In this document: positions 3,119-50,491 of the stretch, piece after piece
Layout: every line of letters begins with the position of its first letter
Numbering within the stretch: the first letter of the stretch is position 1
DNA from: Candidatus Omnitrophota bacterium
GTDB lineage: Bacteria; Omnitrophota; Gorgyraeia; Gygaellales; Profunditerraquicolaceae
Assembly: GCA_028712255.1 (NCBI GenBank)
Contig: JAQTQJ010000004.1
Span: 19,956 to 83,955, forward strand
Length of the DNA: 64,000 nucleotides
Direction of reading: 5' to 3'
The notes under the pieces: model-generated
Databases searched by the model: none
What the model was told of the DNA's origin: nothing
Seen by the model: only the letters and a program-made list of their open reading frames with translations
Program-made: the position numbers and the translations under genes

Positions 3119-3135
3119 TATAAAATTTATTCTAC

Positions 3136-3357: not shown

Positions 3358-3422
3358 CTTATTTTCCTCCTATTGATTTTGGTTTATTGTACCACCTCAA
3401 AAATTTACCCGCAACCTATTTC

Positions 3423-4334
3423 CTAAAATTCTTTCTGGTCCAGGTAATGAGAAGCGCTTAATGCGGCTTTTGAACCTTCTCCAGCGGCAATAATAATCTG
3501 CTTCTCCAAAACATTTGTTACGTCTCCTGCGGCAAATATTCCCGGAATATTGGTTTGGTTAAATAAATCAATGACTATTTCGTCTTTAGAGTTCTTTTGC
3601 ACATTTTTGGCAAACGCAGAATTTGGAGTAAGCCCAATCTCTACGAAAACCCCTTCCACAGCTAACTCTTTCTCCCCGTCCTTATTTCTTATTCTAATGG
3701 CACGCACAAACTTATCCCCCAATACTGCGCTGACCTGGTAATTATTCAAAATTGTAACATTTTCTGCATTCTTGACTTTCTGGAGCATAATCTGGTCTCC
3801 GGCCAACTGATCTGCAATATTTATAATATAAATATGCTTAGCGATCCTGATCAACTGCAAGGTAGCATCCATTGCAGAGTTTCCTCCGCCGATTACCGAA
3901 ACCACTTTACCTGCAAAAAGCGGGCCGTCACAAATAGCGCAATATGTTAAACCATGATTCTTAAATTCTTTTTCACCAGGCACTCCCAGCTCTCTTGATT
4001 TTTTTCCAGAGGCAATAATTACCGCCCTGGATTGATAATCTGCCTTATTAGTCTTGACTAAACACACCTGGCCTGATTTCTCAACTTCCAGTACCTCCTC
4101 ATTTTCTTTTAAGGCAATACCGTATTTACGCATATGCTCTTCAAATTTCAGCGTTAACTCCGGCCCAGTAATAAATTGATATCCTGTGTAATTCTCGATA
4201 TCCCCACTCCAGGCAGTCTGTCCGCCGATATCAAGGCTAATTAAGAGAAATTTCAGTTTCTTTCTAGCCGCATAGACGCTAGCAGTAATTCCCGCAGGCC
4301 CACCTCCAATAATAATCAAATCATAAATTTCCAT
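3423..4334 (-). CDS. trxB: Thioredoxin-disulfide reductase
   Basis: GGGPAG FAD motif, redox-active CAICDG, second GGGNSA NADPH motif, 303 aa. Confidence 0.85.
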   Translation of the reverse strand: MEIYDLIIIGGGPAGITASVYAARKKLKFLLISLDIGGQTAWSGDIENYTGYQFITGPELTLKFEEHMRKYGIALKENEEVLEVEKSGQVCLVKTNKADYQSRAVIIASGKKSRELGVPGEKEFKNHGLTYCAICDGPLFAGKVVSVIGGGNSAMDATLQLIRIAKHIYIINIADQLAGDQIMLQKVKNAENVTILNNYQVSAVLGDKFVRAIRIRNKDGEKELAVEGVFVEIGLTPNSAFAKNVQKNSKDEIVIDLFNQTNIPGIFAAGDVTNVLEKQIIIAAGEGSKAALSASHYLDQKEF

Positions 4335-4342
4335 ATTATAAT

Positions 4343-4579
4343 TTACAATCCTAATAGTTGTTTAATTTTATCCTTATCAAATCCTATGACAATCTGGCCG
4401 TCAATATCCAGAACCGGTACCCCCATCTGCCCACTTTTTTTAACCATCTCATCCGCGGCAACTTTATCAACGGAAACATCCCATTCTAAAAATAGTATGT
4501 TGTTCTCTTTCAAAAACTGTTTTACTCGAATACACCAGGGGCAAGTCGGAGTACTATAAACTATTACACTTTTGGCCAT
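4343..4579 (-). CDS. Glutaredoxin-like protein (CPWC active site, YruB/NrdH-like)
   Basis: 78 aa thioredoxin-fold protein with TPTCPWC motif. Confidence 0.65.
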   Translation of the reverse strand: MAKSVIVYSTPTCPWCIRVKQFLKENNILFLEWDVSVDKVAADEMVKKSGQMGVPVLDIDGQIVIGFDKDKIKQLLGL

Positions 4580-4586
4580 ATTAATC

Positions 4587-5048
4587 TCACTTTCTTAAGT
4601 TAAACGGAGCAAGATCAACTATCTCCTCTATTTCGATCAGAATAATATGCTTAGGAAACGGCAGGCTTGCTTCAGGATGATATCCATGGCTTTTATCTCC
4701 AGCCAAATTCTTCAGTAATCTTTTTGCCAAACGGGAAGTAATCTTATCCTCCCAAGTTTTAATAATCTCTCCGCTAATATCTTCAGGCATTATCTTAGCC
4801 TTCCCTTTAAGGCAATACCCTATAAATTTGTGCTCATCAACTGCGCTGATACTTACCTTAGGATTACGCACTATATTCTCAGCGGTAATTCCATGATAAA
4901 CATCAACTAAATAAACTTTGCCTTCGGGTTCAATTTTGACTATGTCTTTGTATGAAGTATGAGGAAAACCATCTTTATCTAAAGAAGAAACTGTCACGAA
5001 ACTTTGAGTGCGTAAAAAATCAGCAATTTTGGTGTGGATCTTTTTCAT
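4587..5048 (-). CDS. Pyridoxamine 5-prime-phosphate oxidase-like FMN-binding split-barrel protein (putative)
   Basis: 153 aa; fold-level resemblance only; 4-nt overlap with the flavodiiron gene suggests co-translation. Confidence 0.35.
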   Translation of the reverse strand: MKKIHTKIADFLRTQSFVTVSSLDKDGFPHTSYKDIVKIEPEGKVYLVDVYHGITAENIVRNPKVSISAVDEHKFIGYCLKGKAKIMPEDISGEIIKTWEDKITSRLAKRLLKNLAGDKSHGYHPEASLPFPKHIILIEIEEIVDLAPFNLRK

Positions 5049-6232
5049 TTTAAAAGCTCGGCAAATTTACTGCCAAATTCAAAGCAGTTTTTTAATTCAG
5101 CTTCATCAGGGCTATACTTAAAGGATATCCCTGGAAGACTAAGATCTGCGCCGTTATCTTTAAATACCTCTTGCATCTCCTTAACTGCTCCACCAGCCCA
5201 ACCATAAGAGCCAAAGAAACTAACCTGCCTGCCTTTGAGCTTTAAACCTTTAACTATTTCAAGAAACGCAGCAATATTAGGCAGCATATCATTATCGTGG
5301 GTAGATGAGCCAAAAAGAAAACCTTTGGCTGTTAACATTTGCGTAATCACCTCCGTACGATCACTCTGCGCTATATCATAAATCTTAAAATCTATCCCCC
5401 TGCCAGTTATACCCTGGGCAATCCGGGAGGCTATCTTAGCAGTTGAGCCCCACATAGTCTCATAAACAATTACTATCTTGTTTTTCGTTTTGCCGCTCGC
5501 CCAAGAAATATAGGCATCGATTATTTTAGCCGGATCCTTGCGCCAGATAATCCCATGGCTAGGCGCAATCATCTTAATGGGTATATTTAATTTCTGAATC
5601 TCTCGAATTTTATTTAAAATCACGCTCCCAAAAGGCCAAAGGATATTGGCGTAATAAGACTCTGCCTCCTCCATTAAGGCACATTGATCAGTTTGATCAT
5701 CAAAACGCTCACTTGTTGCAAAATGTTGGCCAAATGCATCATTGGATAAAAGCAGTTCATCCTGAAGGCAATAAGTAAACATGCTGTCGGGCCAATGAAT
5801 CATCGGGGCTTCGATAAAGCTAAGCGTACGTTTACCTAACTTCAACTGATCGCCGGTTTTAACAATTTGAAAATTCCAGTCTTTGTAATAATGCTTGTAA
5901 AGGCCCTCCTTACATTTAGCAGTACCTAAAATCTTGGCCTCCGGGCATAATGACATGATTGCAGGCAGAGCGCCGGAATGATCTGTCTCAACGTGATTGG
6001 CAATAATATAATCTATTTTTTCAAGCGGGACAATCTCTCTGATATTATCAATTAATTCCTGCGAGAATGTCCCCAGAACAGTATCAACAAGGGTGATCTT
6101 TTCATCTATAATAAGATAGGCGTTATAAGTTGAGCCCCTTTTAGTAGTATAAGTATGCCCGTGAAAATTACGCACATTCCAATCCACTACCCCCACAGAA
6201 TATATATCCGGTAATATTTTTATCGCAGCCAT
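5045..6232 (-). CDS. Flavodiiron protein (FprA-type O2/NO reductase: metallo-beta-lactamase domain plus flavodoxin domain)
   Basis: HVETDHSGA di-iron motif, C-terminal flavodoxin-like domain; start placed at internal MAAIKILPDIY because the ORF-track N-terminal 37 aa is a spurious extension into a GC-rich repeat region. Confidence 0.8.
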   Translation of the reverse strand: MAAIKILPDIYSVGVVDWNVRNFHGHTYTTKRGSTYNAYLIIDEKITLVDTVLGTFSQELIDNIREIVPLEKIDYIIANHVETDHSGALPAIMSLCPEAKILGTAKCKEGLYKHYYKDWNFQIVKTGDQLKLGKRTLSFIEAPMIHWPDSMFTYCLQDELLLSNDAFGQHFATSERFDDQTDQCALMEEAESYYANILWPFGSVILNKIREIQKLNIPIKMIAPSHGIIWRKDPAKIIDAYISWASGKTKNKIVIVYETMWGSTAKIASRIAQGITGRGIDFKIYDIAQSDRTEVITQMLTAKGFLFGSSTHDNDMLPNIAAFLEIVKGLKLKGRQVSFFGSYGWAGGAVKEMQEVFKDNGADLSLPGISFKYSPDEAELKNCFEFGSKFAELLK

Positions 6233-28955: not shown

Positions 28956-30431
28956 TTAATTTTTTCTAGCAGAAAAATTAAATATTACTATACAAGCTCC
29001 AAACAGTGCGCAGAAAATTACAAAAAGATCTCCATAACGATTATAAAAAGTGGGCTTGCCTGGTATTAAATAAATATTTTGACTGCTATAACCCTTTACA
29101 AAAATTTCAAACCCACGACTGTTTTGCACTACTGACAAAATTCTGCCAAAAGGATCGATAAAACCGGATATTCCGGTGTTAGCTGCCCTAGCCAGATATA
29201 CGCGATTTTCAACCGCCCTGAAAACTGAGGCGGCAAAATGCTGAAAAGGGGCGCTGCCCTCTTTATACCAGGCGTCATTGGTGATATTAACCAGAAATTG
29301 CGCTCCCTTCTTCACAAACTTGCGCGATAATTCGGGGAAAAGATCCTCAAAACAGATGAGTACACTAAAATCAGCAGGCTGCTTAAATATAGTATAATCG
29401 CGCCCGGGCTCTATATCTCCAATAGGAACAATCGTCTCTAAAAATGGAAAACTCTTTTTAAACGGTATATATTCCCCGAGGGGAACCAAATGGATTTTGC
29501 TATAAATTGCCAGGGGCACACCGGACTTATCTATAGATAAAGCGCTATTAAAATAATTCGGCTCAAAATGTGAGACAGCACCCACCAATAAATTAATTTT
29601 TAGCTGGCGGGCTAAGGAAAAAACTTGGGCAAATTCGAGATCATCCTGCCCCCAAAACCCAGGCACTGATGCCTCAGGCCAAATAATCAGATCAGGATCG
29701 TCGTTAGCGGCCTGAGCCGTCAATTCTTTATAATCATCCAAAATAAAATTAACCGCCCGCTTGTCCCATTTTAAATCCTGTGGGATATTACCCTGAATTA
29801 CGGAAATCTTTAATGGTTTTGCACCGGCTACAAGATTAGGCTTATAACTTAATTTATGGAATCCATATGCCAGAGATAAAATAAGAATTACCGATATGAT
29901 CAGAGAGGTTTTGATTCTTGATTGCTTACGTAAAATTAAATAAAAAGCAGTATTCACCAAAACTACCAAGAAACTAACTCCCCAGGCACCGGTAATATCG
30001 GCAATTTGAATAACCGGTAAATTTTTATATTGGGAGAGGCCAATAAGTGACCAGGGGAAACCGGTAAATAAATAGCTGCGAATATATTCCAATAATACCC
30101 AAGCAATTGGTATGCAGAATAGGCGTTTTGCAGGAGATAACGATCGTAACGAAAAAACTGCGCAGCCAAATACGCCAAAATAAATAGACAGGTATAAAAT
30201 CAATACGGCTTGGCCGATTAAAGTAACATGAATAAGCCAATATATAGTTAGAATCCAAAAAACAATCCCGCACAGATAAGCGATAATAAATGATTGGCGT
30301 AGAGATTTATTTTCTAAGGCAATAAAAAGATAAACCAAGCCACACCAGCCAAATAACCAAAGATTGAAACTGGAGAATGAAAAGGATAAAAATAAACCGG
30401 ATAATAAAGATAAAAAGATGCTTTTTTTCAT
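28956..30431 (-). CDS. lnt: Apolipoprotein N-acyltransferase
   Basis: N-terminal polytopic domain plus C-terminal CN-hydrolase domain with LICFEDLFPE catalytic Cys region; 491 aa. Confidence 0.75.
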   Translation of the reverse strand: MKKSIFLSLLSGLFLSFSFSSFNLWLFGWCGLVYLFIALENKSLRQSFIIAYLCGIVFWILTIYWLIHVTLIGQAVLILYLSIYFGVFGCAVFSLRSLSPAKRLFCIPIAWVLLEYIRSYLFTGFPWSLIGLSQYKNLPVIQIADITGAWGVSFLVVLVNTAFYLILRKQSRIKTSLIISVILILSLAYGFHKLSYKPNLVAGAKPLKISVIQGNIPQDLKWDKRAVNFILDDYKELTAQAANDDPDLIIWPEASVPGFWGQDDLEFAQVFSLARQLKINLLVGAVSHFEPNYFNSALSIDKSGVPLAIYSKIHLVPLGEYIPFKKSFPFLETIVPIGDIEPGRDYTIFKQPADFSVLICFEDLFPELSRKFVKKGAQFLVNITNDAWYKEGSAPFQHFAASVFRAVENRVYLARAANTGISGFIDPFGRILSVVQNSRGFEIFVKGYSSQNIYLIPGKPTFYNRYGDLFVIFCALFGACIVIFNFSARKN

Positions 30432-30592: not shown

Positions 30593-30635
30593 GTCATCCT
30601 GAGTCCGCCAATGCTTTAGTGGCGGACGAAGGATC
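30593..30635. repeat. Family A palindromic element variant (gtcatcctgagtccgccaatgctttagtggcggacgaaggatc), preceded by a cccgcgaaagcgg mini-hairpin
   Basis: Immediately 3-prime of the giant ORF stop; likely terminator function. Confidence 0.65.
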
Positions 30636-33600
30636 TATTTATTAAACGCTATTCTTAATTCCTCTCCACTTCTTCCTGATCCCAACACTACCAGGATATC
30701 TTTAAGTGTTGGATCGGTTAAACAACAGCTCTCTTCTTCCATCCTGAGGATATCTGCAATACAAGAGACTATTCTATTGGTATCTTGATCCAGGCTACCT
30801 TTAAAACAGCTAGCAGCAAGATACTCTTTTAGGCGTTCTGCTGATGGGGTGATCCCTGAATTAACTAAACGCTCTATATCTGACCACTCTTGGGTTAGGT
30901 TGATACCTTGTAGAGTGCTTTGAGGCAAACTCCTTATACCTGCTTTGAGGCTATCTATAGACTGGATAACGATAGGCAGAAAGCGGAAGTCGATTCCCCC
31001 AAGCTTCTCACCTTGTCGGGAATCGATGGTGAGGGTAGTCGAACTATCGATGCCGCCGGGAGCAAAAGCAGAATTTGATGAAGAACTTGTTGAGCCGTTG
31101 ATGGGGCCGGTAGTTTTCGGTTTAGCAATCTCATTCTCTAAATATTCTTTAAGATCTGCCAAAATTGAAGCTTTCAAAGATTTATATCCTTTCTGACTCC
31201 TATTAATATCAAGCGCTGATAAAACCCTTGTGACTCTTCCTTCTACGTCTTTGCTAATCATTGCCCATGCAATAGGCACTGGCGGCCTACCCGCTTTCTC
31301 ATAGAACGCAAAAATACCTTCTTGCGTATCATCTATAAGCAATTTCCCCAGCATATCGCCGTAAGAATCCCACTCCCTAAAAATTTCTTTACTCGCTCTA
31401 GGAAATACCTTTCTTAAAGCCTCAGCTTTCATTTTCATTTTAATTTTATCTACAATGAGTTTTGTAATATCGCGCCATGCATCTTTAATTTCATCCGGAG
31501 AGAAAGATGTTTTTGCATCGAGGCCAAAGTATTTAGCAGTTCTTACACCTTGCCGCATTCCCTCAATATACTCCTTTAGAGTTTTAGCGTATTCCTGACT
31601 AAGTATTTCTAAATGTTCTGGATTATTACGATCAAATCCTACTTCAGCAAGCATACTAAATATCTCTTCTTTAAATCTTATGATTTCCGGACTCTCACCG
31701 GAAATTATAAGCTCAAGGCCATTGGGAAGACCTAAGTTTTCTTCATCATCCTTATCAATGCTTCTCTGAGTATCTGCATATCTACGTAATGTTTTATCTC
31801 TTTCTTCTGAAGTTATATGGGACGGTTCTGTTGCTTCATTGCTTCCTGCAAGAGCTTCAGCTGCTACTTGTTTTGCTTCTTTGAATGCTTTCTTTGGATC
31901 ATCGCCCCTTATTGTTTTAACCAATTCTTTGTTCTTTCTTACTTCATAATAAATTTCTCCATTATTAATATAAACCTGTATCTCAACAGAGCCATCCCCC
32001 TGAGATATTGTATTATTTAATCCGTTAGGCATAGTTCCAGAAGCAAGATTGATCCCTGTATCGGGACTAGTGGGATTAAGAGAGCTTGGGGACGGTTCTG
32101 TTTCTCCCGAGTCCATTTCCAGAGAAACAGAACCGTCCCCATTATTCAAAGATACAGCCGCCGCGTATTTCATCGCCTCAGCAAATGTGCCTACTGCATC
32201 GTGGGTAAAATCGCTCAGATGCGCAATATAACCTTCCTGCCAAAATCGCCCTGCATTATCCTGACGCATAAATTCCTCTAACAGATGCCCTAATTCATGA
32301 ACAATCGTATCAGTAGCAGAATCTATCGCGGTTGAATTAGTAGCGGCTCGGCCAATCTCTGAGGCAATAGAGCGGGCAAGAAACATCGTGTGTTTACCTT
32401 GATAAATCTTAAAAGCGCCGGCAAATCTCACTTCATCATTTAACAAAATTATCTGCTCGATGCCAAAATTACGGGCTATCCCCCAAGCCAATGTTACTAA
32501 TTCTCTTTCGTTATCATTATAATCATTCGGGTTGAGAATATACCTTTCCGGACGCTGCATTTGATCATGGCCCAAAGCAATACCTAGGGCTTGCATAACT
32601 TTATTTCCTGAAAAAGGAATATCGCTTAAAGAAGGTAATCTTCCAAGATTGAAACCTCCTGACATTAATAATTCTCTTTGCAATTTAGCTGCACCCAATA
32701 TTGCCTTATTAGTCTCCTCTTGAATCGCCAGGCGCCGCGTTAGAAGGCTTACCTTAGAATCAGAGTTTTGCCTATTAGAGAAAACTTCCAAGAGAAGGAT
32801 AAGTTTAGTAAACTTCTTTTCTTTATCTAACTTCCCTGGTTCTGTAAGTAATCCTCTTAAGGCTTCTTCTGAAATACGCTCAATCCTGCCTACGTTTATA
32901 TCATTGGCTACCCCTAATATCCATCTATCGCTTGCAGGATTAATTGATTGCCAGTAACTATCATTGGTCTCCCAGTCTAAAGGAAACCCTTCAAATACAA
33001 ATTGCGGGCTGCTTTGAGAAAGGGCTTTATAGGCGATTGCCTGAAAAAAGGCAACAGCAACGTAGCGCTGAATCTGAGGAAGAAATTCATTCTCATGCTC
33101 AAAGGCGCTGCGATTACGAATAAGCGGTAGAGGTATCTGGATGATAATCCCTAACTCCTGAATATGCCGGCGTAAAACTGAAGGAATTAATGCTAAGTAC
33201 TCTTCTTTCATTTCACTAACCCTTAAACCTGCTTTATCCACAATCTGTAAGGGCATATCTTTAGCGCTGATAATACGCAAAGGGCCAAAATTCGTCTCAT
33301 CTTTTTCCTGAGGACGGACTGCTTTAAACTCAACTTCAGCTAAGATATCTTTCTCTACAGCGAGCTGCTGCTTTTTACCTTCATGGTCAATAAAAAATAC
33401 CTTAAAATGCTCATCCTGCGCCAGGCCAACAAAGATCTTCCAGGAACGCTGGCTGAGCATCTGGTCCAGCTCGGGTATGGTATTATCCAATGACTTGATC
33501 CGCCTTACGGTTACGCCTTGAGCAACTTTAGGATCAGTTATCTTGCGTATACGCGTTAACTTAACTGCGGTTGGCCTCCCCGAAGAATCTCTAATTACCG

Positions 33601-36600
33601 CAAAAACAAACATATAAGCGCGTTGGCTATTTTTAGTAATAATCTCAAGCCGGTCCACTCCTTCAAACAGCGTATATTTTCCTGTGCCAAAGAACCCGGT
33701 GAGTTCAATCTGGCCTGCGGCTGCCTTAGTAGATTTAGGAATAAGCAAGGCCACCTCTTCTAGGGCGCCGGTCCCATTATCCCGAGCTTCTTCAACATAC
33801 TCTTCTTGGCCTTGAGAGTTTTGCTGAAGGTAAAAATCTACTAATAGCTCCCCGTGTTTACCACGCGTAGCATCACGGGAATTTTGGGCAATCTCAGCAG
33901 TATAGGCGCCAGATTCTCTTTGCACAGTAGCATTAAGTAAAATATCCGATTCTAACTTTGCTGAAGACTGAGGAAGATTAAAAATACTTCTTACAAGTTG
34001 CTCAACGCTCATAACCTTATCCGCGAGCCCGTTCTTTGGCCTTTGCTGCTCAAGTTTAATAATCTGCGACAAGGCTACTGCCTCCTCCGGGCCTCTAGCA
34101 TTAAATTCATCCACACCCTCAGGCTCAGTCCTTTCCTTCTCTCTTAACTGCTCGACATTATTAGTTAAAAAAACCACAAAGGGGCGCGCTTTACCCAGCT
34201 TATGAGCATCCTTAAGTTGAAATGATCTTCGTTCGTTTGCGTCATCAAATAATTCAAAGGCGCTATACAAATCAGATAAATATTTATCTCTGGCTTCTGG
34301 TTTTAAGGCTAATAGCCTATTTATCTGATTGGCAAGGATATGAGCACCATCGGCGTGGTTTGCAGCTTGAAGAGAAACACCTGAGAGAAAATTTATTATT
34401 GATGTAAGCCTTTTAACTTCACCGGGAGTTGCTTCTTTTAGCGCAGCGATGAATTTGATTATTACGGGTAAGATATCTATCTTTTCCTGATAAGTACCCC
34501 AGCCATAAGCAAGGGCTTCAAAAAGTTGATTATCTATCTCAAGATGTTCGATGTTTAACTCTCTCTCCTTAGAAATGCAGATAAGGCTAAAAAACAAATC
34601 AAAATAAAAATCGTATTGATCCTCAATTCTCTCTTGAGAAAGCTGAGTTTTTCTTTCCTGAAGAAATCCGGGCAAAACCCGCAAAAATTGCTGCATCCTT
34701 CGGCTAAAAATATCAAAGGGCAATTCTTCAAGGTTCAAAGGCTGATTATTTTCGAGCGCTTGCCGGAATCTACGATTAATCTCATCTTCTTGGTCTAGAT
34801 AAAGTTCTTTAATCATTTCTCCGAGACTAAAGTCGGACCGATGCTTGAATTCTTCCGGGATTAAATCTAAGAATGGCTGATAAGCAGCCTGCGCCCTAGC
34901 AATAAAAGCGTCACGCTGAGAGAAAACATTATCTCTCCATTTTGCCATAACCTCTTGCGCGTTAATCTGTGCCTCTTCTGCCTGCGCTTGAACTTGAGCG
35001 GGTTGAGGCGCTTGAACAAATACCTTGCGCGGGTCCAGATACCTTATCTCTTGGGTCTGAGGATTAACAAACACAAAATATTCGCCGTTAACGTCTGCAC
35101 AAATAAAATTTTGAGGTACTTGTTTAGTAACACCCTTAATCTCGCCGAAATTATTAACCAAAAGAATGCGTCCATCATGAGTAGCTACAAGAATAAAGTT
35201 ATTATTTTGCTCTATAAAGAATTGATGCTCAAAAAAAAGCGAAGCAACAGGCCTTGACTTATCGGTTATCGCATATACTACTTCAAAACCTCTTTCTGCA
35301 TTTAAAAGATACCAAACCTTGCCACCTTCTAACGACACCACACGATCAGAGGGCTGTATTTGTTTAATATCTGTTAATAATCCGGAATCTAAATTTAAAA
35401 TACACACATCGTGATCACCAGTTGGTAAATAAAAACTACCTTCGTAATGAGAAAAATTACGAAAAATCAAATTATTACCTTGCAGCAAAATGCTCCCCAA
35501 TGGTTCTATGGGAGTACCTCTATTATATTCAAAACCAATTGAGGCCATTACTTCTCCCCAATGCGTCTTATAAGATTCTGGAATTCCATTTGTCTCTTCA
35601 TCCCAAATTGTTTTCTTCTCTAAATCGTATTCTTCCCAGTAACGTCGAGATATCGGGTCTGTTGACGGCCCTGCCTCAATAACTTTAAAAATATTTCGAT
35701 GAATAAATATACCCGGAGCCGCATATCCGCTGGCTCTACTAAATACATCGCACTCTTTAAGTCTCCCATCCTTATTTACTATCAGTAAATAAGTTTTGCC
35801 TCCGTCAGAAGTAACTCTTATTTTACCTCCTTCTTCAAGATCTCGATGTTTAGCTCTCATTGATATAAACATCTCATCTTTCTTTTCTTCTTTTTCATTT
35901 AACCATAAATAATCCAATTTATTGCCGGCCTTAAATATCGCCACTTCTCCGGAAGAATCAATTTCAATGTGGTCAGCGCCTTGGATTAAAAACCTGCCCT
36001 GCCCTAGACTAAATAAACTGTATTTGCCCTGCTTATCCTGGAGAATAACCACATCTGCCTTATCATCTACGCGAAATCCCAACGAATCATGCGTGATTAT
36101 TTGCGGCACCCTATTTGGGGCTGTGTTATAATCACTATATGTAAGGATGTTATTGCCTTGTTTATGCACCGAGAATCTTCCCGAAGCAGACAGAAAAACT
36201 TCTGACGATTCCGATTGCTCTACTCCTGAGGCGGTATCGAGCACAATATAATGCTTCTTATTTGGCGTTCCCAACGGCAACATATCGATTTTCTCTATAA
36301 CCACCAAATTACCCTTTATGGCTACAACAGAGTATGTAGTTCCTATTATGGGCCGTCCGTCAAACAACTGTTGATCTCCCTTATAAATGTAGAAAGAATC
36401 ATTAGATTCATACACAATAAAGGCATCGGTTGACCCTATTCGCTGAACACGAACATATGCAAATGGAGCGGCACGATTTTTATCTTCACGGTTAATAAGG
36501 CTAAAACCTCCGCCGGGTTGCGGAGTAATTATGATAGAATTCGGCGCATCCGCAGGCTTAGTCTCGCTAAATAACGCAGCTGGCTGCACTTGCGGATGAG

Positions 36601-39600
36601 CTAATGGCTCAGCCTCAGTAGATTCTACCTTTTCAACTTCCGCTAATACCTCTATAGCGGCATAATAATTTTCTAGCACCAGAACATTATTATTATTTAT
36701 GAGCTCAAGAATTTCTTTAAGGATTGCCTTGGCCTCAGCTATCCTATTTCCCTTAGCAAATGCCTCAGCTACAGAAACAAGAGCTTCACATTTCATCCGA
36801 ACTTCGTCTTCAGGAATCTTCCTGGTTATCTTCAAGGATTCATCTACTTCACCTATTTGGGCTAACCCTTGAGCTATATTAAATAATAAGCCTGGATAGA
36901 TAGACTTACGAACAACAGAATCCGTATTGAATTGCCCCAAAACTTCCAGTATGCTATTACATAATCGCCCTGCTTCTTTTATATCCCCATTCTCTATCAA
37001 TCCCTTAACTTCATGGGATAGGAACAATAATCTTTCTAGAACACTACCTAGATCCAACTGCTTGATCACAATATCAAATATTTCCTGCAATTTTTCTGGC
37101 CGGACTAAGAATTTATCTGTCCCGACGAAGCTCTTAAGTATGCTATCAAAAACCTGCCCTTTTCGGGTAACATCTGATATTTTGATTGTTATCGAGAGCG
37201 CTTTCTTAAACACGTTTTCTGCATCGGCAATTCTGATCATCTTAAAGTAGGCGGCGGCTACAATAGCCAAGGCTTCCGCCTTATCTTCAGGATCAGTAAG
37301 TTTCTCTGCGATACGTTGCGCTCTTTGCAATAAAGCATAAACTTCTTCTTCTGGTAATTTTGACTCAACTAATGCATTTGTAATATCTAATAACTCTGTT
37401 CCCTTAGACCATGAATTGGGAAACTTTTCTACATTAATGAGTATATCTTCAAATAACTTACCTGCCTCTCTTTGTCTTTCTAGTCTAGAAAATGCCTTGG
37501 CTATAATTGCAAGTATTCGTTCTTTATTATCGAGCTTTTCTACTGTGCCCTTAATCTCTTTTAGCAGAGTAAAAACCTCTTGGATGGTGATATCTGAGGC
37601 GATTAATGCTTCAATAATAGTAGAAATATTCTCACGCAGATCATTATGGCTCATGCCCTTTATCATATTCACTAATTTTGCAAACAAGGCATAAGTTCCA
37701 GCACTTCCTTGTAAACGAGCAGCTCCAGCCAACGCTTCAGTTATAGAAGCAATAGCTCTTGCTTTAGCAGAAGGATCTGGAATGTGGCCTGTAAAATCAA
37801 TAACTTCTTCAAATAGCCCTAACCTTTCAGTAGTACCCATAATAACACCGGCGGATTTATCCATTACCATAACAAAAGCTTTAACCGCTCTAACCATTAA
37901 CCAAGATCTACTACGATTATCATTCTCAAAAACATTTTGTGCCTCAAGATACGCCTTGCGCAGTGTAACAAAAGCTAGATCTTCCTGCCCTATTTCAGCT
38001 TCTGCTAAAGCTGTAGCTATAAGGGCATCACATCCGTCTGCATTCCGATCAGAAGCGTCCTTTTCTACTCTATAAAAATGATGCGCCTTATTCAGCGCTT
38101 CTTTTGCTTCATCAATTCTTCCTGTTTTAGCTAATCCTCTGGCTAATACGGCATAAGCGCGGCATCTTGAATAATCATCAGGCAAGGCCTGCGCAATGCC
38201 ACTGACTACTTTAACTAAATCTAAATCAGCTGGTTCTTTAGCCTGCGCGCCAGCTTCCTTTACGCCTTTTTGCATGCTCATTACAGGAGGCTCTCTTAAA
38301 AATTTATTAATTGCACCGGAATCAATTGCTCCGCTTACCTCTTTAACTTCTGGAATTGCTGTAACTGCCAAGTTATCTTTGGGCTTGGCATGCTCATAAC
38401 TTGTCACCACCTCTTCAGCGGTAATAATGTTTACTCTTTGCAACAGTGAGGAATATTCTTTTTCTTCTTGGGCCGTCAAACCGCCGCTTCTTTTCCTGCT
38501 CAATTCTAATAATCTCCTGCCCAACTCCTGCGGTATAATCACAAAACTTTCGGTTTTGATTACTGGCAGGCGTTCTTCTTTAGCCCAGGTATGCCATAAA
38601 CGGTCAAACTTAAAAAACCTTTTTGTGGCTTCTTGAGTAAAAGGAGCAATAATCAAAGGCAGGTGGCTAGCCCCTCCTAAAGTAACATACGGAATTATCT
38701 CTCCTCCGATTGCGTTTAAGAAACTAGAAAGCTGCCAATCAAATAATTTTCCATGCACAAAAAGTACATCCTTGCCTCCGAGTTCAAGTTTACCAAACTC
38801 TTTCTGCTGAGGCAGGACAATAACCCCCTGATGCCTTAACTCTTGTATTAGGCCGCTGATTACTTCCTGAACATTAGCGCGGATACCTTTTACCAAATGG
38901 CTGCTATTAGCATTGGAATTAATTAAGCCATCAAGGCCAACCATTATGGTATTAATATATTTTATTTTCTCGCGGGTAGTCAATTTGGGATGTTTTACAA
39001 TCTGCTTTATCGCGTACTCTACCCCTTGCTGGAAACTGGGAATCTTGCCGCCTAAATTAAGGCCCATGATAATATTATCCCGGGATTCGGAAACATCCAG
39101 CAAACCGCCTAATTCAAGCATTAAACCGCCTGTTACAGTAGCGCTATCCATAATCTCTCCGGGAATATCTACCGCTATAATTACCTCTCCATTCCTGGCA
39201 AAAGAAACCCGATGGGGAAGCGCTTCATCATGAACAACTTTTACTTTACCCAGTTCTCTATCTATATTTAACTCTAAAGACGCGGGGCGCTTTGTCCCTT
39301 CTTTGGGTACAAACATTTTAGCGAGAACCTCGGCATCCATGCCACTGCCATTATCAACAATAGTTATGGCATGCTCTGAAGTAATTACTTTTACAAACCT
39401 GCCCTGGCTTTCTTCTGGGGCATGAGCCTTGCTCCTCACCGGCACAACTACTCTTTTATTCTCAAACCCGTTAATCTTTACGGGTTCCCTCTGGCCGCTC
39501 ATCTGCGTATAAATATCCACTTCCCCTACAAACGGGAAACGCTGATGTATAGCGTCAGCTATTGCTCCTTGAGAATTACGATGCGTTTCATCACGCTGGC

Positions 39601-42600
39601 TATCCAAGCGCGGAATAGCCTCAACAGTAGACACTTTTACAATAGTGCCATGCTCTATAATTTGGCCGGCATATTCTTGGGCTAGATCCTGATATTCCTG
39701 CGCGGATATCTCTTTAATCTGAATATATCGAGCGCCTTGAGCATCTCTAGTTAGAGTAAGATGATAGGCTTTACTGTTTTCTTTACGTGTAAATATTTCT
39801 ATTTTATCTTCAGCCGAAGGCCCTAACCAATCAATAATCTGCTTTACGCCCTTACTAAATTGGCCTATGCGGAATCCATGCGCATCCAGCCCATTAGATA
39901 CTGCTTCGCATATACTCTGTATCCTTGCATTTTTGTTTTGGTCAACGATCTCTACATCTAATCTTACACCCTCAACAGGATATGTGTCTCCAATAATCAG
40001 GTCTACAACTTCTTTTGCATATCCATTACTGCCAAACCCCTCATATATAGCTTTATATGCAGCTTCTCCTGTAAGAGCAGTATTGAGTTTTAAAAGTTTT
40101 AAAATATCAGGTAATAATTCCCTTGGGATATTTCTTTCTGCCAACCGATACTGTGCCCAGATAAAACGATTAAGGTCGACTAAGTCTATGCTTGGCTGCA
40201 ATTGTATAGTTGCTCTAGCTTTATTCCAAGGCCAGCGTATGCTTTGCGCCCATTCCACTACCATCTTACCCAAATCTATCTGGCCAAATCTATCATAGAA
40301 AAACTGGGCCGGCCCAGAACCAATGACTACGCTCTTGCTACCAGTAGCCGCGCGCGAAGTTGAAGTTGCCAGCTGCGGCGCTGGCGTTACTTGAGCTACC
40401 TTTAACACCTGGCCTTTATTCGTAGTAGATATATACTTTTTGATCGCATCAAATAGATCGGATCCGTCAACATATTGAAGCAGGTTATTGATTGCGGACA
40501 CATTTTTGAAAAATAACCGGATCCTCAGCGGCGTATCATACCCTCGCTTTTCAAATTCTGCCATTAAGAGATTGGCAACACTTGAGCTGACATCTTTTCC
40601 TTGGATTAGATCAATAACTGTTGACCAAGAAAATATTTTCTTTAGGATTACTGACCGTATCTCTTGGCGAACCTTATCCTGATCGGTTTTATCCGGATTT
40701 ACTTGCAAAAGATAATTAATCAGCGCATCAACTTTACCCATAAAATTAAATTTCCAAGCCATACTTAATCGGGTAATTAGATCAATATCCACAGGTAATA
40801 ATTTAAGATAATAATTTCTATCGATTACTATTTTTTCATATGATCCGTCGGGTCTTTTATTAAGCATTAAATTACCGATATGAAAATCCGAATGCGCCAT
40901 ATATATGGTTTCTCCGGAATAGGAATCTGCAACCGGAGTCAACAAATGCGTCAAATAATCCCTGGCAAAATCAGCTAACGCCGCTTTTAGTTTTGAATCA
41001 CTCACTCTTCCTTTCTTATCCGTCTGGGCGGGAACAACCTGGTCGCCCCCATTTAATATCTTCTTAAGCGTATCCCCTGGAGCATATTCCTCAACTTTTA
41101 TTCTGTATCCATATGGCTGCAAAACACGCGATGTGGTTATTGAGCCTGCCGCAGGATAAAATACAGCTGAAGAAAATATCGCATCGTCACTTAAGAAAAA
41201 GCCATCATTAATGTCATCTTTGACCCACAACCTTAAAGTACCCAACAATCGTTCTGCCATAATGTATTGCCGTTCATTTTTAGGGTCTTTAGCAATTAAA
41301 TCTTTCACTGTTTTTTGCATTTGTTCTGCGCGTTCGCCTAATAGAACCTCAAGATTCGGAGATATAATTTTTACCACCTGTCTAGCAACACTCCCATCCG
41401 GTTGTGTCACTGACACTAAATACGCGGTATTAATGGAGCCCCCGCCTAACACTTTTTCTATCCTAAGATGTATTTTTAAATACTCCATTGCTTCAACCTG
41501 TGCAGTATAAAATGCTTTAAAACTTGCCAAGGTTTCTGTGAACACCTCTTCAAACATTGATGCGGTACGTTCATTATATTCAGTAAGCTTTTTATCCCGT
41601 AAATTTTGGGCAAATAAAGATAAGAATACGCGTTGATCGTAATCTTGAAGCGGGCTGTCATTTAAATTAAAACGGAATCCCAGAAAATTAATTGCTTCTG
41701 CCCGGAACTGTTTAAGATATTCAGTTAGCGGTATTGTTTGGCCTGCTTCCATCAGGCGCTTTGACCATTCAGCATAAGCAGCGGATTTAATCCACGCCCC
41801 ATCCCGGACTGTTTGCATACGCTCAATTTCAACTGCCAGCGACTGAAACAAATTACTCTTTACCAGAGTAGAGGCGTTATCATACACATTACTGAACTCT
41901 TCCTTATATTCTTGCGGGATAGCGTAATACTGGCCAAATACTTGTAGGAACCGGACACCGAGCGCGCCAATTGCTTGCCCTGCGGTAGCAATGAATTTAC
42001 CTAACCTTATAGATAATGCTTTAGTTTTTCCAACTGTAGTTTTAAATTGAAATACCGCATTCTCCTGGCGATAATATTCCCGCTCTTTTGCTTGAAACTT
42101 AAGCAGCTGCGGGTTGATCATCGATTCGCCGGGATTAAATACCGCATACACTGCCTCAATCTCAGTATCGGGAATATATGACGGGTTATCCTTCAGAAAC
42201 GCAAAGAATTGTTCTGCTGTTTTACCATACTCCTGCGTTACGTACTTCTTATATTTTTGATATTGCTTGTGCTCTTTTAATTGTCTATCATAACCATGTT
42301 CTTTCCACCGTTTACGATCATAACTGCTTCGGCCATATGATTTCTGTAGCTCTTCCAAGCTCAAAAGATTTTGTGTCGGCCGATAAATTTCATTCTGAAA
42401 ACGCTCATAAGCAGGTAACCACCTCTGTAACCTGGAATCCCGCACAAATGGATCAGCTGGCTGTGTAAACCACGACATAACTGCGGCGCGGTGTGTATAC
42501 GCAGGATCACCGACCAACGCATGTTCCGCAAGAACTTTTGATAAGAAAAGTGTTAGCTCGCTATTGTCCACATTCGCTAAAAATGCCACTAGAATATTTT

Positions 42601-45600
42601 GCATAAGTTGTAATTCTTCTGGTTTCATACCTGAAACATTCCCTAAAATCCATGCGCTGAGTTTCTCCAAATTTTCTGCCCGGAAAAACACAGCGTTATA
42701 TTTTGACAAAAGCCTCTGGAAGAAAACAAAACGCTCAAGTTGTGTCATGGAATAAAAACGGTTCATCCAATCATCAACGCGTTGAACATCCGTAATAGCG
42801 CTAACATCAACGTCGTCTCTCTGTTGCGCTTCTGCCCGAATCTTAGTAATCGTCTCCATGATTACCGATGCAAGATAATCATCATCTCCTGTTACCATTG
42901 CCTTCATAAAATCCATCGCCTGTTTTTCACCAATCTTCATCTCCTCAAGTGTTTTATCCAATGCCATAAAACCACCCAGCATCACTTTTCCATCAAGGCT
43001 ATTGCCCTTCTCGTAAACACTCACTAATTGTTGATATTGTTGATATTCGGCATCCGTATCCACGCGCTCCTGGCGGAAATAATACAACGCATCAAAATTT
43101 CCATATCCTAACTCATTTGATACAAACGTGTAGGCATCGGAAAATTTCCCTTCCTTGATTATGCGGTGGCGCAGATTCGTCAGAAGCTCACGTTTCTGCC
43201 TTCCCGGAGGAGAATAACGCTCAATAAAATAATACGCTTCTTCCAAATCTTTCCAAGAACTCACTGACAATGACGCTGCGTAAAGTTGCAAGCTTACTAA
43301 TTTTGCTTCAATTACAGGGTGAAGAAAATTAAGTTCATCTGAATCCTTGCCATAATAATTAATTAATACTTCCTGTCCAAGAAACCGGCTACGGCCTCCA
43401 ATAGCAGAAATAGATCCTTGATTTTTTATCTTTCTTGCCGATATCTCTGCATTAGACAATGCAAATGATGCATGGATACTATCGGTAAGCGCCTGCAATT
43501 GTTGAATCGATAATAAACTAAGCTTATTTATCAGTGTTGCTTGCGCAGCTTCTGCATCAAAATCGGTAAGCGCTGCATTGGCGAGTGAATTATCATTAAC
43601 CGCATCGGCATAAATAAACTGTCTTGCTTTTCGGACAGTAGTATATTCTAATCTTTTCTTTTTTGCTTGCCCGCTGACAGATTGCGCAATCGCAGCAAGC
43701 TCTTCACGTTGCGGGTTTTGCTCCCATAACAGGTAATATTTTTGGTCCATTTGACGCAAAATAACCTCATAATCTTCTTCATTAACCTTTGATTCTTCCC
43801 TGCTCTTACTTTCTACGCAAAGAATATCTCTTCGAATAGCGCTCTCAATAAAAAATGCTTCGCTCAATGATGCCTTCTGATATGCAATAAACTCGCTACT
43901 TACTAAGAACTGTTCCATCGCCTCCCGGTAGAACACGGCATAAGCCTGAGCTTGTGCTCTATCTGTACTCATCCGGCTAATGCCTTCTACGCTAATTGGC
44001 AACCATAATCGCCCGTCCTTATCTTGAAAATGATTTGCTGTGAATTTTTGTATATACATTCGCAAGAATCCAACTCTATCCCCTTGAGCCATATATTCAT
44101 AAAGCCCTATCTGCTTTCCATACTCCGGTAATTTTGCTTGCTGCAATACCCGGTTAGTCGCTTCCATTCTGAGCCCATAACTTAACGGGTTTACGCTTGA
44201 AAATATATCAAATAGCGACGAACTAAGCCATAAAGTTAGATCCACATACGTCATACGGCCAAACCTGTTATGAATTTCTTCTCCAAGTTCGGTGTCATTT
44301 GGTTGGCGATTAGAATAGTCTTTGGCTTCTTGCAAATCCTGAGTATTACGAATCCATTCGGCGGTAAAGGTAACTAATTGTCCCAATTTCTTCTTCTGTG
44401 CTTCTGATAACCGGCTTGAGAATTGCTCGTAAGAATCAAAATCCTTACGGAGCGCTGCTTCTTCATTAAAAATGTCATGCCACAATGACCCTACAAAATA
44501 CCATTGATGCGGATTTTCGCTCCCAACCAGTCTCTGTTTTCGTATATCCTCATTGGCCCTCTTTGGATAATAAACAAAAGAAGGATCAAGGATATTCTTT
44601 TCAACATACTTCTTGCTTGAAATATACTGCTCGAGAAATATTCTATATGTTTCAAAGTCTTTTTCAGAATCAAAAGAATTTATTAAATTTGAATAAAACA
44701 CGGAGAAATAATACTGCCGAAGCTGCCTTAAATAATCAGAAAGCCATATCCGTGAGCCACCAAACGCAGGATTGGAAATCTTCCCGCTTGCATTAAATGC
44801 TAGTGTAATCGCAGTAATCCTCTTGCCAAAACCATCAAGGCTCAACAGTGAGCCATCAAAAGTAAAGAAATTGTAGACCTCTTGCCACTCCTGAACATTA
44901 GGAGATTCTGTTTGGATATTTAGTAATCGCATAAAGTAATCTCCCAGATAGGGGGCCATATCGTAGCCATCAGGATTATCATTGCGAGAGGAAAGCAGTG
45001 ACAAGGCCAAATATCGAACTACCTCATCTGTACTCTCGGCTGGAAGGCCATCCGCGCATGCAGTATTCTCTTTCAAGAGATACTGGCTGATATATACAAG
45101 TTTCTGCCAACTAAGATAGTAAGATGCCGCATTAAACGGTTGCCTCTGTTGTGTTCCGATAAATTCTTCGATGATGAATTTATATTGCTCTTGCGAAGAT
45201 AGTGTTTTTTGGGTCAACTCCCCCCAAGTATCTTTAAAATCCTGAAATGAAGATTGTTTTAAGTACGTTAAATAATCAAGGACAATAAAATACCCTTCCG
45301 GAGATTTCCAGTACCCCTCTAACGGATGAAAGGCGTTAACATGCGTCAAATCCTGTCCCTGTAAATTCATGCGCAGAAGCGTCGTTCGATCAAATTGACT
45401 TCCATGCGTCCAGTCAGAGCTCCCCTTCACAAAGCTTTCCAGCTTGTTAGATAAATAAATAACCGCGAGTTGATTAAATCCAATACCGTTGATTAACGAA
45501 GGAGAAACTGCATCCGCCTTATATTCCCCAAGACGTTTATCTAAAGGGGTACCGACGTTATTCCAGGTTAAATAATTATCCTGATAATGTGACAATTCAT

Positions 45601-47572: not shown

Positions 47573-50491
47573 TTATTTTCCGCAGCATTTTTTATATTTT
47601 TTACCCGAGCCGCACGGACAGGGGTCATTACGGCCTACCTTGGATTGGTGGGATTGCACAGGTTTAACAGCTTGCGCGGGCGCAACAGGTAGCTCCACAT
47701 CAGCATCGTCCCCAGCAGGAGCCTGGAATTTATTCGCCTCAGGATGAGTTAGTTCCTTGGGCAGAGAACTAAAAACCCCTTGGAATCTATCAGGCTTGAC
47801 TGGCTCTAATTTGAAAACAGTCTGCACAGCGTCCTCTTCGATAGCAGCAATCATCTGACTAAACATTCCAAAAGCTTCGCGCTTATATTCAATCAAAGGA
47901 TCCCTTTGCCCATAGGCGCGCAAACCAATACCTTCACGCAAGCTATCCATGGCATAAAGATGATCTTTCCATTTAGTATCGATAATCTGCAGGAAAACCA
48001 TACGTTCTAAATTACGCAATAACTCTGCGCCAATCAGTTTTTCTTTACCTTCATAAGCTAAAAGCATTTTTTGTGTTAAATCATCCTTTAACCCTTCTTT
48101 ATCTTGGTCAGTAAATGCCTTAGCGTCCGTCTCTAGGCCAAAATTTAAGGCCAAGGAATTGATTAAACCCGTTACATCTAAACCAGAGGAATCCCCGTGA
48201 TCATAAATTTTCAGATAATCATCAATCAATTTGGGAATAATTTCAATAATATTTTCTTTTAAAGAAAAACCTTCCAAAATCTGCTTACGCTGGCCGTAGA
48301 TAATTTCCCTTTGTTTATTCATTACATTATCATATTCCAGGAGCTGTTTTCGGATTTCAAAATTGTGCTGTTCTACCCGGCGCTGGGCAATCTCAATCGA
48401 ACCACTAACCCAGGGATGCTCAATAACCTGCCCTTCTTCCAGTCCCAATTTATCCATCAGCCCAATAATCCTGTCAGAGCCAAACAAACGCATAAGATCA
48501 TCCTTCAATGATACATAAAAACGTGATGAACCCGGATCCCCCTGCCTGCCGCTGCGGCCGCGCAGCTGATTATCGATACGCCTGGCTTCATGGCGCTCCG
48601 TGCCTAAAACATGCAAGCCGCCTAAGGCCACTACTTTATCATGTTCAAGGGCAGCTTCGGATTTATAACGATCAAGGATTGCTTTGTACTCAATCTGATA
48701 ATTTGGATCCTCCGGATTTAATTTCTGCTTGGCCACGTTTTTAGCGGTAAACTCAGGATTTCCACCTAAAAGTATATCTGTACCACGGCCAGCCATGTTG
48801 GTAGCAATAGTCACGCCTTTATATCTACCGGCCTGAGCAATAATAATCGCTTCCATTTCATGATATTTAGCATTTAATACCTGATGAGTAACCCCGCGGC
48901 GTTTAAGCATCTCAGAGAGCCTCTCGGATTTATCAATAGTGATTGTACCGACCAATACGGGCTTGCCCAAATTATACAATTCTACGATCTCTTCAACCAC
49001 AGCATCAAATTTCTCTTTTTCAGTTTTATAAATGCGATCAGGATAATTCTTACGCACTAAAAGTTTGTTTGTAGGCAGAACAACTACATCCAATTGATAA
49101 ATACTTTTAAATTCATTGGCTTCGGTAAAAGCAGTACCCGTCATCCCGGCTAGTTTCTCATACATGCGGAAATAATTTTGAAAAGTCACGGTGGCTAAGG
49201 TTTGATTTTCCCGCTCAATCTTTAATCCTTCTTTAGACTCGATTGCCTGATGCAGGCCGTCTGACCAGCGCCTGCCGGGCATAAGCCTGCCGGTAAATTC
49301 ATCGACGATTATCACCTGGCCATCCTTAATCACATAATCCACATCCCGCTCAAAGAACTCCTTTGCCCGCAGGGCCGCAATAGTATGATGACGATACTCA
49401 ATAGTTTCCAAAGCATGAAGGGTATCCACGCCCCAGAGCTTAGAGGCTTTAATCTCCCCTTCTTCAGTTAAAGCTACGGTCTGAGCTTTTTCATCGGCGA
49501 CATAATCAAATCCTTTTCCTAAGTCTATTCCTTTATATTTTGCGTCGATCTCGTCTCTTTCCGTAACCCTACGGCCATTTAATTGTTCAACTATTTTTTT
49601 AGCAGTATAATATTTTTCCGTGGACTCCTCGGCAGGGCCTGAGATAATCAACGGTGTACGCGCCTCATCGATTAATATTGAATCAACCTCATCCACTATG
49701 GCATAATAGAACGGCCGCTGCACCAGTTCTTCAATAGAATATTTCATATTATCGCGCAGATAATCAAAACCAAATTCATTGTTGGTGCCATAAGTTATAT
49801 CGCAGGCATAAGCAATTTTTCTTTCCTCATCGCTCATATCATGCTGGATAGTGCCTACGGACAGCCCTAAAAATTCATAGATCGGCCCCATCCACTCGCG
49901 GTCGCGCCGGGCAAGATAATCATTGACCGTAACCACATGCACTCCTTTACCCAATAAAGCATTAAGATAAGCTGCTAATGTAGCCACTAAAGTTTTACCT
50001 TCTCCGGTGGACATCTCGGCAATCCTACCTTCATGCAAAATAATACCTCCGGCAATCTGCACATCAAAATGGCGTAATCCTATCGTACGCTTAGCTGCCT
50101 CTCTGACTACGGCAAAAGCTTGCGGCAATATATCGGCAAAAATTCTATTGCGGCTAACCTTTAATTTTTCTTTTAACTTTTCTTTCTCTTCGGGTATAGC
50201 CACGCTAAGCATTGCCTGTTGTAAATCTTCAAGCTCCTGAGCAATCTCAACAGATCTATTTTTTAGATGCTCTTTAAATTCATTTGACTTAGCAGTAAGC
50301 TCTGCGTCGCTAAGCGCGCTTATCTTAGGTTCTAGAGAATTCACTATGTTAACAATTCTAGCCACCTCAACCATCTTGTTCATTGAAGGGCTAGGCATAT
50401 CAGAATGCAAAGTCATATTTAATTTAGGAAATCTGTTCCTAATAGCATTCTGTTTATTTTGAAGAATAATTTTTTTAATTAATCCTAACAT
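47573..50491 (-). CDS. secA: Preprotein translocase ATPase SecA
   Basis: MLGLIKK start, DEAD-like motor motifs, C-terminal zinc finger [14 protein letters not shown]; 972 aa. Confidence 0.9.

Follow-up and report, generated by a model that had tools for sequence, protein, structure and literature searches.

Gyrase B, Hsp90, histidine kinases, MutL and MORC belong to the GHKL ATPases, a superfamily familiar from textbooks and of major importance as drug targets. As far as we have found, the four motifs of these proteins (N-box, G1, G2 and G3) are always reported in the same linear order. Hsp90 is a cytosolic dimer with chains of about 650 amino acids, and sacsin, a cytosolic protein of eukaryotes, holds three collinear Hsp90-like repeats in one giant chain together with UBL, DnaJ and HEPN domains. 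Here we describe a giant protein from an uncultured Omnitrophota-like bacterium, which is encoded by one uninterrupted open reading frame in a 64,000-nucleotide stretch of contig JAQTQJ010000004.1 (assembly GCA_028712255.1, positions 19,956 to 83,955; hereafter the window) and contains two GHKL modules. The C-terminal module has the canonical motif order and is, taken alone, of a known kind; the unusual part is its block-swapped upstream partner and the conserved pairing of the two.

The C-terminal module

Profile searches identify the C-terminal module (Table 1) as a genuine Hsp90-type GHKL ATPase domain with its motifs in the canonical order N-box, G1, lid, G2 and G3; it is followed by a predicted S5-fold transducer or middle domain. 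The single sequence from the window matched just Hsp90 N-domains in the PDB, and did so weakly (E=0.013). A profile of seven sequences (A2) matched members of the Hsp90 family at E=1.1e-5, and a profile of 38 sequences (A3) matched the Hsp90 N-domain at E=1.9e-10, in an alignment that is collinear through the N-box, G1, lid, G2, sheet and G3. Every match listed for these two profiles is to Hsp90, HtpG, Grp94 or TRAP1. The correspondence with yeast Hsp82 can be followed along the family consensus, from the N-box (rElaQNslDA, compared to RELISNASDA in Hsp82) and G1 (isDnGtGal and IRDSGIGMT) through the lid (ipkstk and IAKSGTKAF) to G2 (GfFGtGkft and GQFGVGFYS), the strand that follows it (DRveiitkn and DRVQVISKN) and G3 (qGvtir and RGTILR). 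In the giant protein itself, the short lid after G1 contains IPKSTKA, which aligns with IAKSGTKA of Hsp90, and distant relatives read GT at the position of its G3-equivalent QGVTV.

The motif residues are strongly conserved among 75 relatives. In the N-box, E4509 is kept in 73, N4513 in 74 and D4516 in 66 of these proteins; in G1, D4547 is kept in 74 and G4549 and G4551 in 72 each; and the three glycines of G2 (G4575, G4578 and G4580) are each kept in 74. The first-pass annotation had placed the motifs EIAQNSRDA, ARDNGTGA and GFFGTGKYTLF within positions 33560-33952 of the window and assigned them to an Hsp90-type GHKL ATPase rather than to a histidine kinase or gyrase. All three are found there, on the minus strand, which it had omitted, and its residue numbers are right. 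Its spacings also agree with those we measured, namely 36 residues from the N-box to G1, 30 residues from G1 to G2 and, in the upstream module, 184 residues from the N-box to the aspartate of G1. The assignment to the Hsp90 type likewise holds, as the PDB matches listed are all to that family and the fold searches are topped by GHKL proteins. Histidine-kinase and gyrase readings were rejected, because the sequence matches Hsp90 alone and neither HisKA, Toprim nor another partner domain was found.

The AlphaFold2 model of the module, built from seven sequences, has pLDDT values of 30-66 in the N-domain and 70-88 in the second half. With this model as the query for Foldseek, the top 18 matches in the PDB are all GHKL ATPases, with full-length Hsp90 (E=4e-6), TopoVI-B and GyrB on top, and Hsp90, Grp94, TopoVI-B, MutL and MORC hold the top ranks in the fold searches. 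The module thus combines the N-box, G1, G2 and G3, in this order, with the alpha/beta sandwich of the Bergerat fold. In the second half, the fold search matches S5-fold proteins, and the secondary structure of the predicted model places R4770, which is kept in 74 of the 75 relatives, in a loop that links a beta-strand to a long helix. To our own reading, this loop (IPLPLIRNRS) resembles LPLNLSRE of Hsp90, which contains R380. The same strand-loop-long-helix setting of a catalytic arginine has been described for R380 of Hsp90 and for the proposed arginines of sacsin (PMC9880540).

When the entire giant protein was scanned in five pieces against Pfam and NCBIfam, the C-terminal module gave no HATPase match, and the C-terminal segment matched nothing at all in NCBIfam. 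Among the 38 sequences of the larger alignment, nine individually reach Pfam HATPase_c_3.

Swapped blocks in the upstream module

A second G1 box and N-box further upstream, 180 residues apart, had been taken by the first-pass annotation for a divergent or insertion-bearing module. There is indeed a second GHKL module in this region, but it carries no insertion. What separates the two boxes is that half of the domain which runs from G2 through the sheet to G3. As a single sequence, the upstream module gave nothing relevant in the PDB. A profile of 35 sequences (A4) gave, among the matches listed, the Hsp90 family alone (E=4.7e-5), in three pieces that are not collinear. Profile positions 30-39 correspond to residues 33-42 of Hsp82 (N-box), positions 25-155 to residues 101-202 (end of the lid, G2, sheet, G3 and last helix), and positions 197-222 to residues 63-90 (strand and G1).

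The blocks of the upstream profile were also compared with the profile of the C-terminal module using hhalign, with 20 column-shuffled profiles and reversed profiles as controls. The first block (U1, residues 2488-2516) aligns with positions 1-25 of the C-terminal module, which contain the N-box (E=7.5e-4, score 21.9 compared to a maximum of 13.5 for the shuffled profiles). The second block (U2, residues 2516-2640) aligns with positions 77-183, from G2 to G3 (E=8.5e-6, 40.6 compared to 15.9), and the third block (U3, residues 2664-2716) goes back to positions 26-77, which contain the hairpin, G1 and the lid (E=9.7e-5, 28.5 compared to 15.5). The remaining residues, 2716-2812, align with the transducer at positions 212-303, with R2780 opposite R4770 (E=0.024, 18.8 compared to 17.3). 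The reversed profiles scored 9.5-14.7. The first three mappings are solid by these alignments and the fourth is marginal.

Because the matches to Hsp82 are non-collinear and the block-wise mapping exceeds its controls, the alignments identify the upstream module as a paralog of the C-terminal module with the linear order N-box, G2, G3, G1. The block that comprises the hairpin, G1, helix and lid has moved from its place between the N-box helix and G2, and now follows the GHKL sheet and precedes the transducer. The motif residues have been retained in this arrangement. Among 72 relatives, N2509, G2524, G2591 and D2689 are present in all, E2505, D2512, T2592 and G2693 in 71, G2519 in 70, G2691 and M2694 in 69, and R2780 in 66. 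The family consensus reads EAVSNSxDA..G..IGQFGKGVKQ ... GT.V ... I.DNG.GM......MFVP..G.K ... ESR. All four GHKL motifs are thus present and kept in 65-72 of the 72 relatives, in an order that differs from the canonical one.

The AlphaFold2 model of the upstream module is a single compact domain (pLDDT 88.6, pTM 0.88), and the top matches in the fold search are GHKL proteins alone, which identifies the fold as a Bergerat fold. The first-pass annotation had proposed structure prediction with Foldseek and profile searches as checks of its reading. For both modules, GHKL proteins came out on top in the former, and Hsp90 N-domains in the PDB were matched in the latter. Since the model is compact and confident, each block is present in a single copy and the motif residues are jointly conserved, the blocks are predicted to reconstitute one nucleotide pocket.

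Two other explanations of the motif order were considered. In the first, EAVSNGLDA is the G1 position of a degenerate collinear copy, as suggested, without significance, by hhalign of the single upstream sequence against A2 (probability 1.4%) and also allowed by hhalign of the whole profiles. It was rejected because the E, N, D and A of the motif are near-invariant, because U1 aligns best with the N-box, and because a separate conserved DxGxG block downstream aligns with G1 and the lid. In the second, the region consists of tandem, half-degenerate GHKL copies. This is disfavored by the one compact domain in the AlphaFold2 model and by the occurrence of each block only once, and the candidate for a second N-box (ETHRNSQGAIADA) is not conserved.

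As for the C-terminal module, neither Pfam nor NCBIfam detects the upstream module significantly in the protein from the window; the HATPase_c_3 match at its G1 has an E-value of just 0.23. HATPase_c is reached by 23 of the 35 members of the upstream alignment, and the HATPase_c and HATPase_c_3 matches fall on the block with G1 and the lid.

A family of giant proteins with paired modules

An initial word-indexed search identified seven relatives, one of which was named Candidatus Omnitrophota. An exhaustive HMMER search with the alignment of these seven against 1.84 billion cluster representatives retrieved 203 clusters (50% identity) at E<=0.001, of which 84 had E<=1e-30, and nearly all of them are inside proteins of 1,000-7,700 amino acids. 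A further homolog search with the A3 alignment added two fragments alone. The names of the cluster members say almost nothing about function ("ATP-binding protein", "HEAT repeat domain-containing protein", "hypothetical protein"). The first-pass annotation had stated that nothing similar is described in bacteria, which is too strong, as bacteria have HtpG and GHKL proteins of the MORC and MutL types, and as the family itself comprises these 203 clusters. What remains of the statement is that the family is unannotated.

The upstream module was identified in 72 of the approximately 150 family proteins retrieved, and all 72 also have the C-terminal module. The upstream module is always the N-terminal one of the two, and the spacer between them is 460-3,050 residues long. 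In the protein from the window, the spacer has roughly 1,700 residues with TPR and beta-rich regions. Mapping the BLAST coverage of the giant protein by its family revealed three conserved stretches, at residues 1-400, 2400-3100 and 3700-5100. The second stretch corresponds to the upstream module and its flank, and the third to a beta-rich and helical region, the C-terminal module and a region with an HExxH motif. The two ATPase modules are the best-conserved blocks, and residues 400-2400 are essentially private to the protein from the window, since almost no relative shares them. Together, these sequence comparisons define a family of giant bacterial proteins, mainly from Omnitrophota, that had so far gone unannotated, that bear predicted signal peptides and whose conserved core is the pair of modules.

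The taxonomic distribution was surveyed among the GTDB species representatives with an A2 profile search, in which the C-terminal module was found at 37 loci, mostly in metagenome-assembled genomes of Candidatus Omnitrophota. The other loci are in bins labeled Elusimicrobiota, Ratteibacteria, FCPU426, Margulisbacteria, Planctomycetes and CPR (candidate phyla radiation). The best identity among the 37 loci is 66%, and the species from which the window derives is not among the representatives. A distant subgroup of proteins (P0080-P0151; 1,600-2,300 amino acids) has both modules and lacks the signal-peptide-like N-terminus. Its motifs are more canonical (for example RELVQNSRDA, GLFGVGFF, ELIANAIDA and IGRFGVGF), and one of its members is annotated as "ATP-binding protein [Candidatus Parcubacteria bacterium]".

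Within the literature searched, we found no publication on the family or on a permuted Bergerat fold, and papers on giant proteins of Omnitrophota mention generic HATPase_c counts alone.

Comparison with other GHKL proteins

Hsp90, with HtpG, Grp94 and TRAP1, is the sole family that is matched by the sequence profiles of both modules, and it has ExxxNxxDA, DxGxG, an (I/A)KSxTK lid, GxFGxG, DRVxVIxK and GT in common with them. The second domain of the C-terminal module is predicted to be of the S5 type, and its near-invariant arginine, in the loop from a strand to a long helix, may correspond to R380. However, the lid is about 11 residues shorter in the giant protein, sequence searches detected no similarity in the middle region, and no C-terminal dimerization domain of Hsp90 was detected, nor any Hsp90 match in Pfam or NCBIfam anywhere in the protein. 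The module is also part of an apparently exported protein of 5,594 amino acids, unlike the short chains of the cytosolic Hsp90 dimer, and its second copy is block-swapped. Given the missing dimerization domain, the shorter lid and the different context, the protein is not an Hsp90 ortholog.

The comparison with sacsin made in the first-pass annotation is apt as an analogy. Each of the two proteins is a single giant chain with more than one Hsp90-like N+M module, a short lid and a conserved arginine between a strand and a long helix. The three repeats of sacsin are collinear, whereas one of the two modules of the giant protein is block-swapped, and the accessory domains of sacsin are all absent from it. 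No direct sequence link to sacsin was found. By sequence the protein is not a member of the family of sacsin SRR repeats, and the resemblance is one of analogy or convergent architecture.

The modules have no sequence-level matches to MORC, MutL, GyrB-ParE or TopoVI-B. All of these families have the canonical block order, DNA-handling domains are absent from the giant protein, and the conserved basic residue in MutL and GyrB is a lysine instead of the arginine found here and in Hsp90. Histidine kinases differ in that their combination of a HisKA or DHp domain, with its phospho-accepting histidine, next to HATPase_c and of an F-box was not found in the giant protein. The closest systems are thus Hsp90 by sequence and sacsin by architecture, whereas MORC, MutL and the type II topoisomerases are equally close by fold.

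Other regions of the protein and neighboring genes

The giant protein has one hydrophobic segment alone, which is N-terminal (residues 8-26) and resembles a signal peptide. Similar N-termini are present in many relatives, and from its sequence the protein looks exported. The first 400 residues contain an N-terminal domain common to 13-20 relatives. In one relative (P0007, 765 amino acids), a similar domain is joined almost directly to a G1 box, without an N-box.

Two features were observed in the private part of the chain. Pfam Peptidase_M48 matches around HELSHY (E=1.5e-11 to 3.8e-12), and a kinase-like pattern resembles the APH/EcKL/ABC1-type fold. The support for the latter is weak (Pfam EcKL E=0.003, APH E=0.13), no sequence match in the PDB was found, and the part around residues 2140-2235 was assigned to no family. 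If real, it would add a second domain that uses ATP to a protein that looks exported. Between the two modules, TPR-like helical repeats (TPR_12 E=3.9e-6, other TPR matches weak) are followed by a long beta-rich stretch, and the second half of the spacer is conserved in 16-60 relatives. The HExxH region that follows the C-terminal module is kept in approximately 80 relatives, with H5041, E5042, H5045, H5073 and F5079 invariant (HELGHLLEE...FTHD). It has no match in the PDB or Pfam, and its HExxH...H motif looks like a zincin-like metal site of no recognizable family.

Upstream of the giant gene are housekeeping genes for SecA, RF-1 and a type II secretion (T2SS-E-type) ATPase, and downstream are those for Lnt, a PIG-L family protein and LpxL. 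The genes directly 5' and 3', secA and lnt, are on the same strand as the giant gene.

Table 1. Features of the giant protein and adjacent genes, ordered along the chain, with positions in the window (approximate values marked ~).
Feature	Residues	Window position	Strand	Sequence or key residues	Basis or alignment
secA, directly 5'		47573-50491	minus		
Giant open reading frame	5,594 in total	30635-47419	minus		One such reading frame at the locus
Signal-peptide-like N-terminus	1-31	47327-47419	minus	MMKKSKTFKILSILLCVSLLLQQTGFAQVANA	
Peptidase_M48 match	546-615	45575-45784	minus	HELSHY	Pfam
Kinase-like pattern	~1985-2235	~40715-41467	minus	GGGSINTAY...VVKI...HSDFHIGNLML...IDRNYY	
Upstream module	2474-2812	38984-40000	minus		Predicted GHKL domain with swapped block order and transducer-like domain
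Upstream N-box	2505-2513	39881-39907	minus	EAVSNGLDA (E2505, N2509, D2512, A2513)	U1, aligns with N-box of C-terminal module
Upstream G2	2519-2524	39848-39865	minus	GQFSKG, 5 residues after N-box	Aligns with G2 to G3 of C-terminal module and Hsp82 101-202
Upstream G3	2591-2592	39644-39649	minus	G2591-T2592	Aligns with Hsp82 RGTILR
Upstream G1 stretch	2685-2703	39311-39367	minus	ITIVDNGSGMDAEVLAKMF	Motif search in the reading frame
Upstream G1 and lid, after G2 and G3	2689-2710	39290-39355	minus	DNGSGMDAEVLAKMFVPKEGTK	Aligns with hairpin, G1 and lid of C-terminal module and Hsp82 63-90
Upstream transducer-like domain, ESRD loop	2780	39080-39082	minus	R2780	hhalign opposite R4770, weak
TPR-like repeats	~3050-3700	37220-38420	minus		
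Beta-rich stretch	~3720-4300	~34500-36300	minus		
C-terminal module	4485-4880	32780-33967	minus		Predicted Hsp90-type GHKL domain, S5-fold transducer/middle domain and helical extension
N-box	4509-4517	33869-33895	minus	EIAQNSRDA (E4509, N4513, D4516)	Aligns with Hsp82 RELISNASDA
G1	4545-4552	33764-33787	minus	ARDNGTGA (D4547, G4549, G4551)	Aligns with Hsp82 IRDSGIGMT...IAKSGTKA
G2	4575-4585	33665-33697	minus	GFFGTGKYTLF (G4575, G4578, G4580)	Aligns with Hsp82 GQFGVGFYSLF
G3-equivalent	4634-4638	33506-33520	minus	QGVTV	Aligns with Hsp82 RGTILR
Candidate catalytic-arginine loop	4762-4771	33107-33136	minus	IPLPLIRNRS (R4770)	Between beta-strand and long helix of S5-fold domain
HExxH region	4880-5110	32090-32782	minus		Family alignment (A6) and coverage map
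lnt (apolipoprotein N-acyltransferase), directly 3'		28956-30431	minus		

Discussion

We consider it probable that the two GHKL modules with their S5 transducers are the paired, conserved core of the giant protein and serve as an ATP-operated, clamp-like or chaperone-like engine. In the alignments, both modules keep the Mg-ATP-binding residues of known GHKL enzymes. Beyond the observed homology, fold, motif conservation, block order and co-occurrence, this reading would involve the following steps. Both modules would bind and hydrolyze ATP, as suggested by the conservation of their catalytic residues, and by analogy with Hsp90, MutL, MORC and GyrB they may be ATP-operated, dimerizing clamps. 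ATP binding would be expected to drive the association of two ATPase domains, as in every characterized GHKL protein with a transducer. In the simplest arrangement, each chain would form an intramolecular, heterodimeric clamp through the pairing of its own two modules. The intervening TPR and beta-rich region of about 1,700 residues could then be closed upon ATP binding and reopened upon hydrolysis, in a chaperone-like or remodeling cycle of the sort proposed for sacsin. The lid of the permuted module runs directly into the transducer, an arrangement that could couple lid closure to domain movement in a different way. If exported, the protein would have to act where ATP is present, such as within the cell of a host or prey.

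Several points weigh against this reading. The signal-like segment would place both ATPase modules beyond the cytoplasm, in surroundings poor in ATP. Export would leave ATP available just in a partner cell, which plausibly suits host-dependent or predatory Omnitrophota. In the protein from the window, G2 of the upstream module is GQFSKG rather than the consensus GQFGKG, in which the middle position is Gly in 65 and Ser in 6 of the 72 relatives. The N-domain model of the C-terminal module is of low confidence, so that its fold assignment comes mainly from the sequence profiles. A sequence profile of the transducer region around R4770 alone finds nothing in the PDB, and the alignment of R2780 with R4770 barely exceeds the shuffled controls. 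That the relocated G1 block is at the nucleotide pocket in three dimensions is inferred, not seen, and the pairing of the two modules within one chain is a pure inference.

It is rather unlikely that the modules derive from GHKL ATPases but are non-enzymatic. The giant protein would then be an adhesin or scaffold, located extracellularly or in the periplasm, with the modules as structural or client-binding (holdase-like) domains that work independently of nucleotide. Such a role would agree with the signal-like N-terminus of the protein and its many similar relatives, with the lack of any other hydrophobic segment and with the small amount of ATP outside the cell, as well as with the Ser in G2 of the upstream module and the failure of Pfam and NCBIfam to recognize either domain in the protein from the window. 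However, pseudo-enzymes normally lose their catalytic residues, while here residues needed solely to bind and hydrolyze Mg-ATP, namely the Glu and Asn of the N-box, the Asp of G1 and the glycines of G1 and G2, are kept in 95-100% of the relatives in both modules, at overall identities of 20-65%, and the transducer Arg is likewise kept in 74/75 and 66/72 relatives in the C-terminal and upstream modules, respectively. Still less probable are ATP-dependent clamps that act on nucleic acid instead of protein, for example on the DNA of a host or prey, in the manner of MORC, MutL or type II topoisomerases. These proteins are as close by fold as Hsp90, but the sequence profiles of both modules match the Hsp90 family alone, and Pfam and NCBIfam detected neither a nuclease, Toprim or CW domain nor the C-terminal domain of MutL, nor any other domain that binds DNA, anywhere in the protein. 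Chance motif matches in a very long protein of ordinary composition, with no GHKL domain at all, might account for the single-sequence E-value of 0.013 and the lack of a significant HATPase match in Pfam or NCBIfam, but this is already refuted by profile E-values down to 1.9e-10, by GHKL proteins alone at the top of the fold searches, by motifs conserved in 72 and 75 relatives and by shuffled and reversed controls well under the real scores.

The two modules have implications at several levels. A G1-lid block that has moved behind G2 and G3 in a conserved family would be a new topological variant of the Bergerat fold, with a canonical copy beside it in the same chain. The variant would also offer a natural experiment on the coupling between the transducer and the closing lid. 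Because neither Pfam nor NCBIfam detects the modules in the protein from the window, genome annotation currently misses both domains. The protein is also a parallel, in bacteria, to sacsin, for which it is still unclear how a mechanism with several Hsp90-like modules works. In its boldest form, which we regard as doubtful though worth stating, the proposal is that a block-swapped Bergerat fold, with the lid wired to the transducer rather than to G2, is natural and stably inherited, that it pairs within the chain with a canonical Hsp90-like module, and that the resulting heterodimeric clamp is the conserved engine of a family of exported giant proteins with which Omnitrophota and their ultra-small relatives act on the cells of a host or prey. 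The conserved core of the giant protein is the ATPase pair, and the metalloprotease-like (M48) and kinase-like parts are in the portion of the chain that is not conserved. The ATPase pair provides a first functional handle on giant proteins of the Omnitrophota type, which are otherwise almost unannotated.

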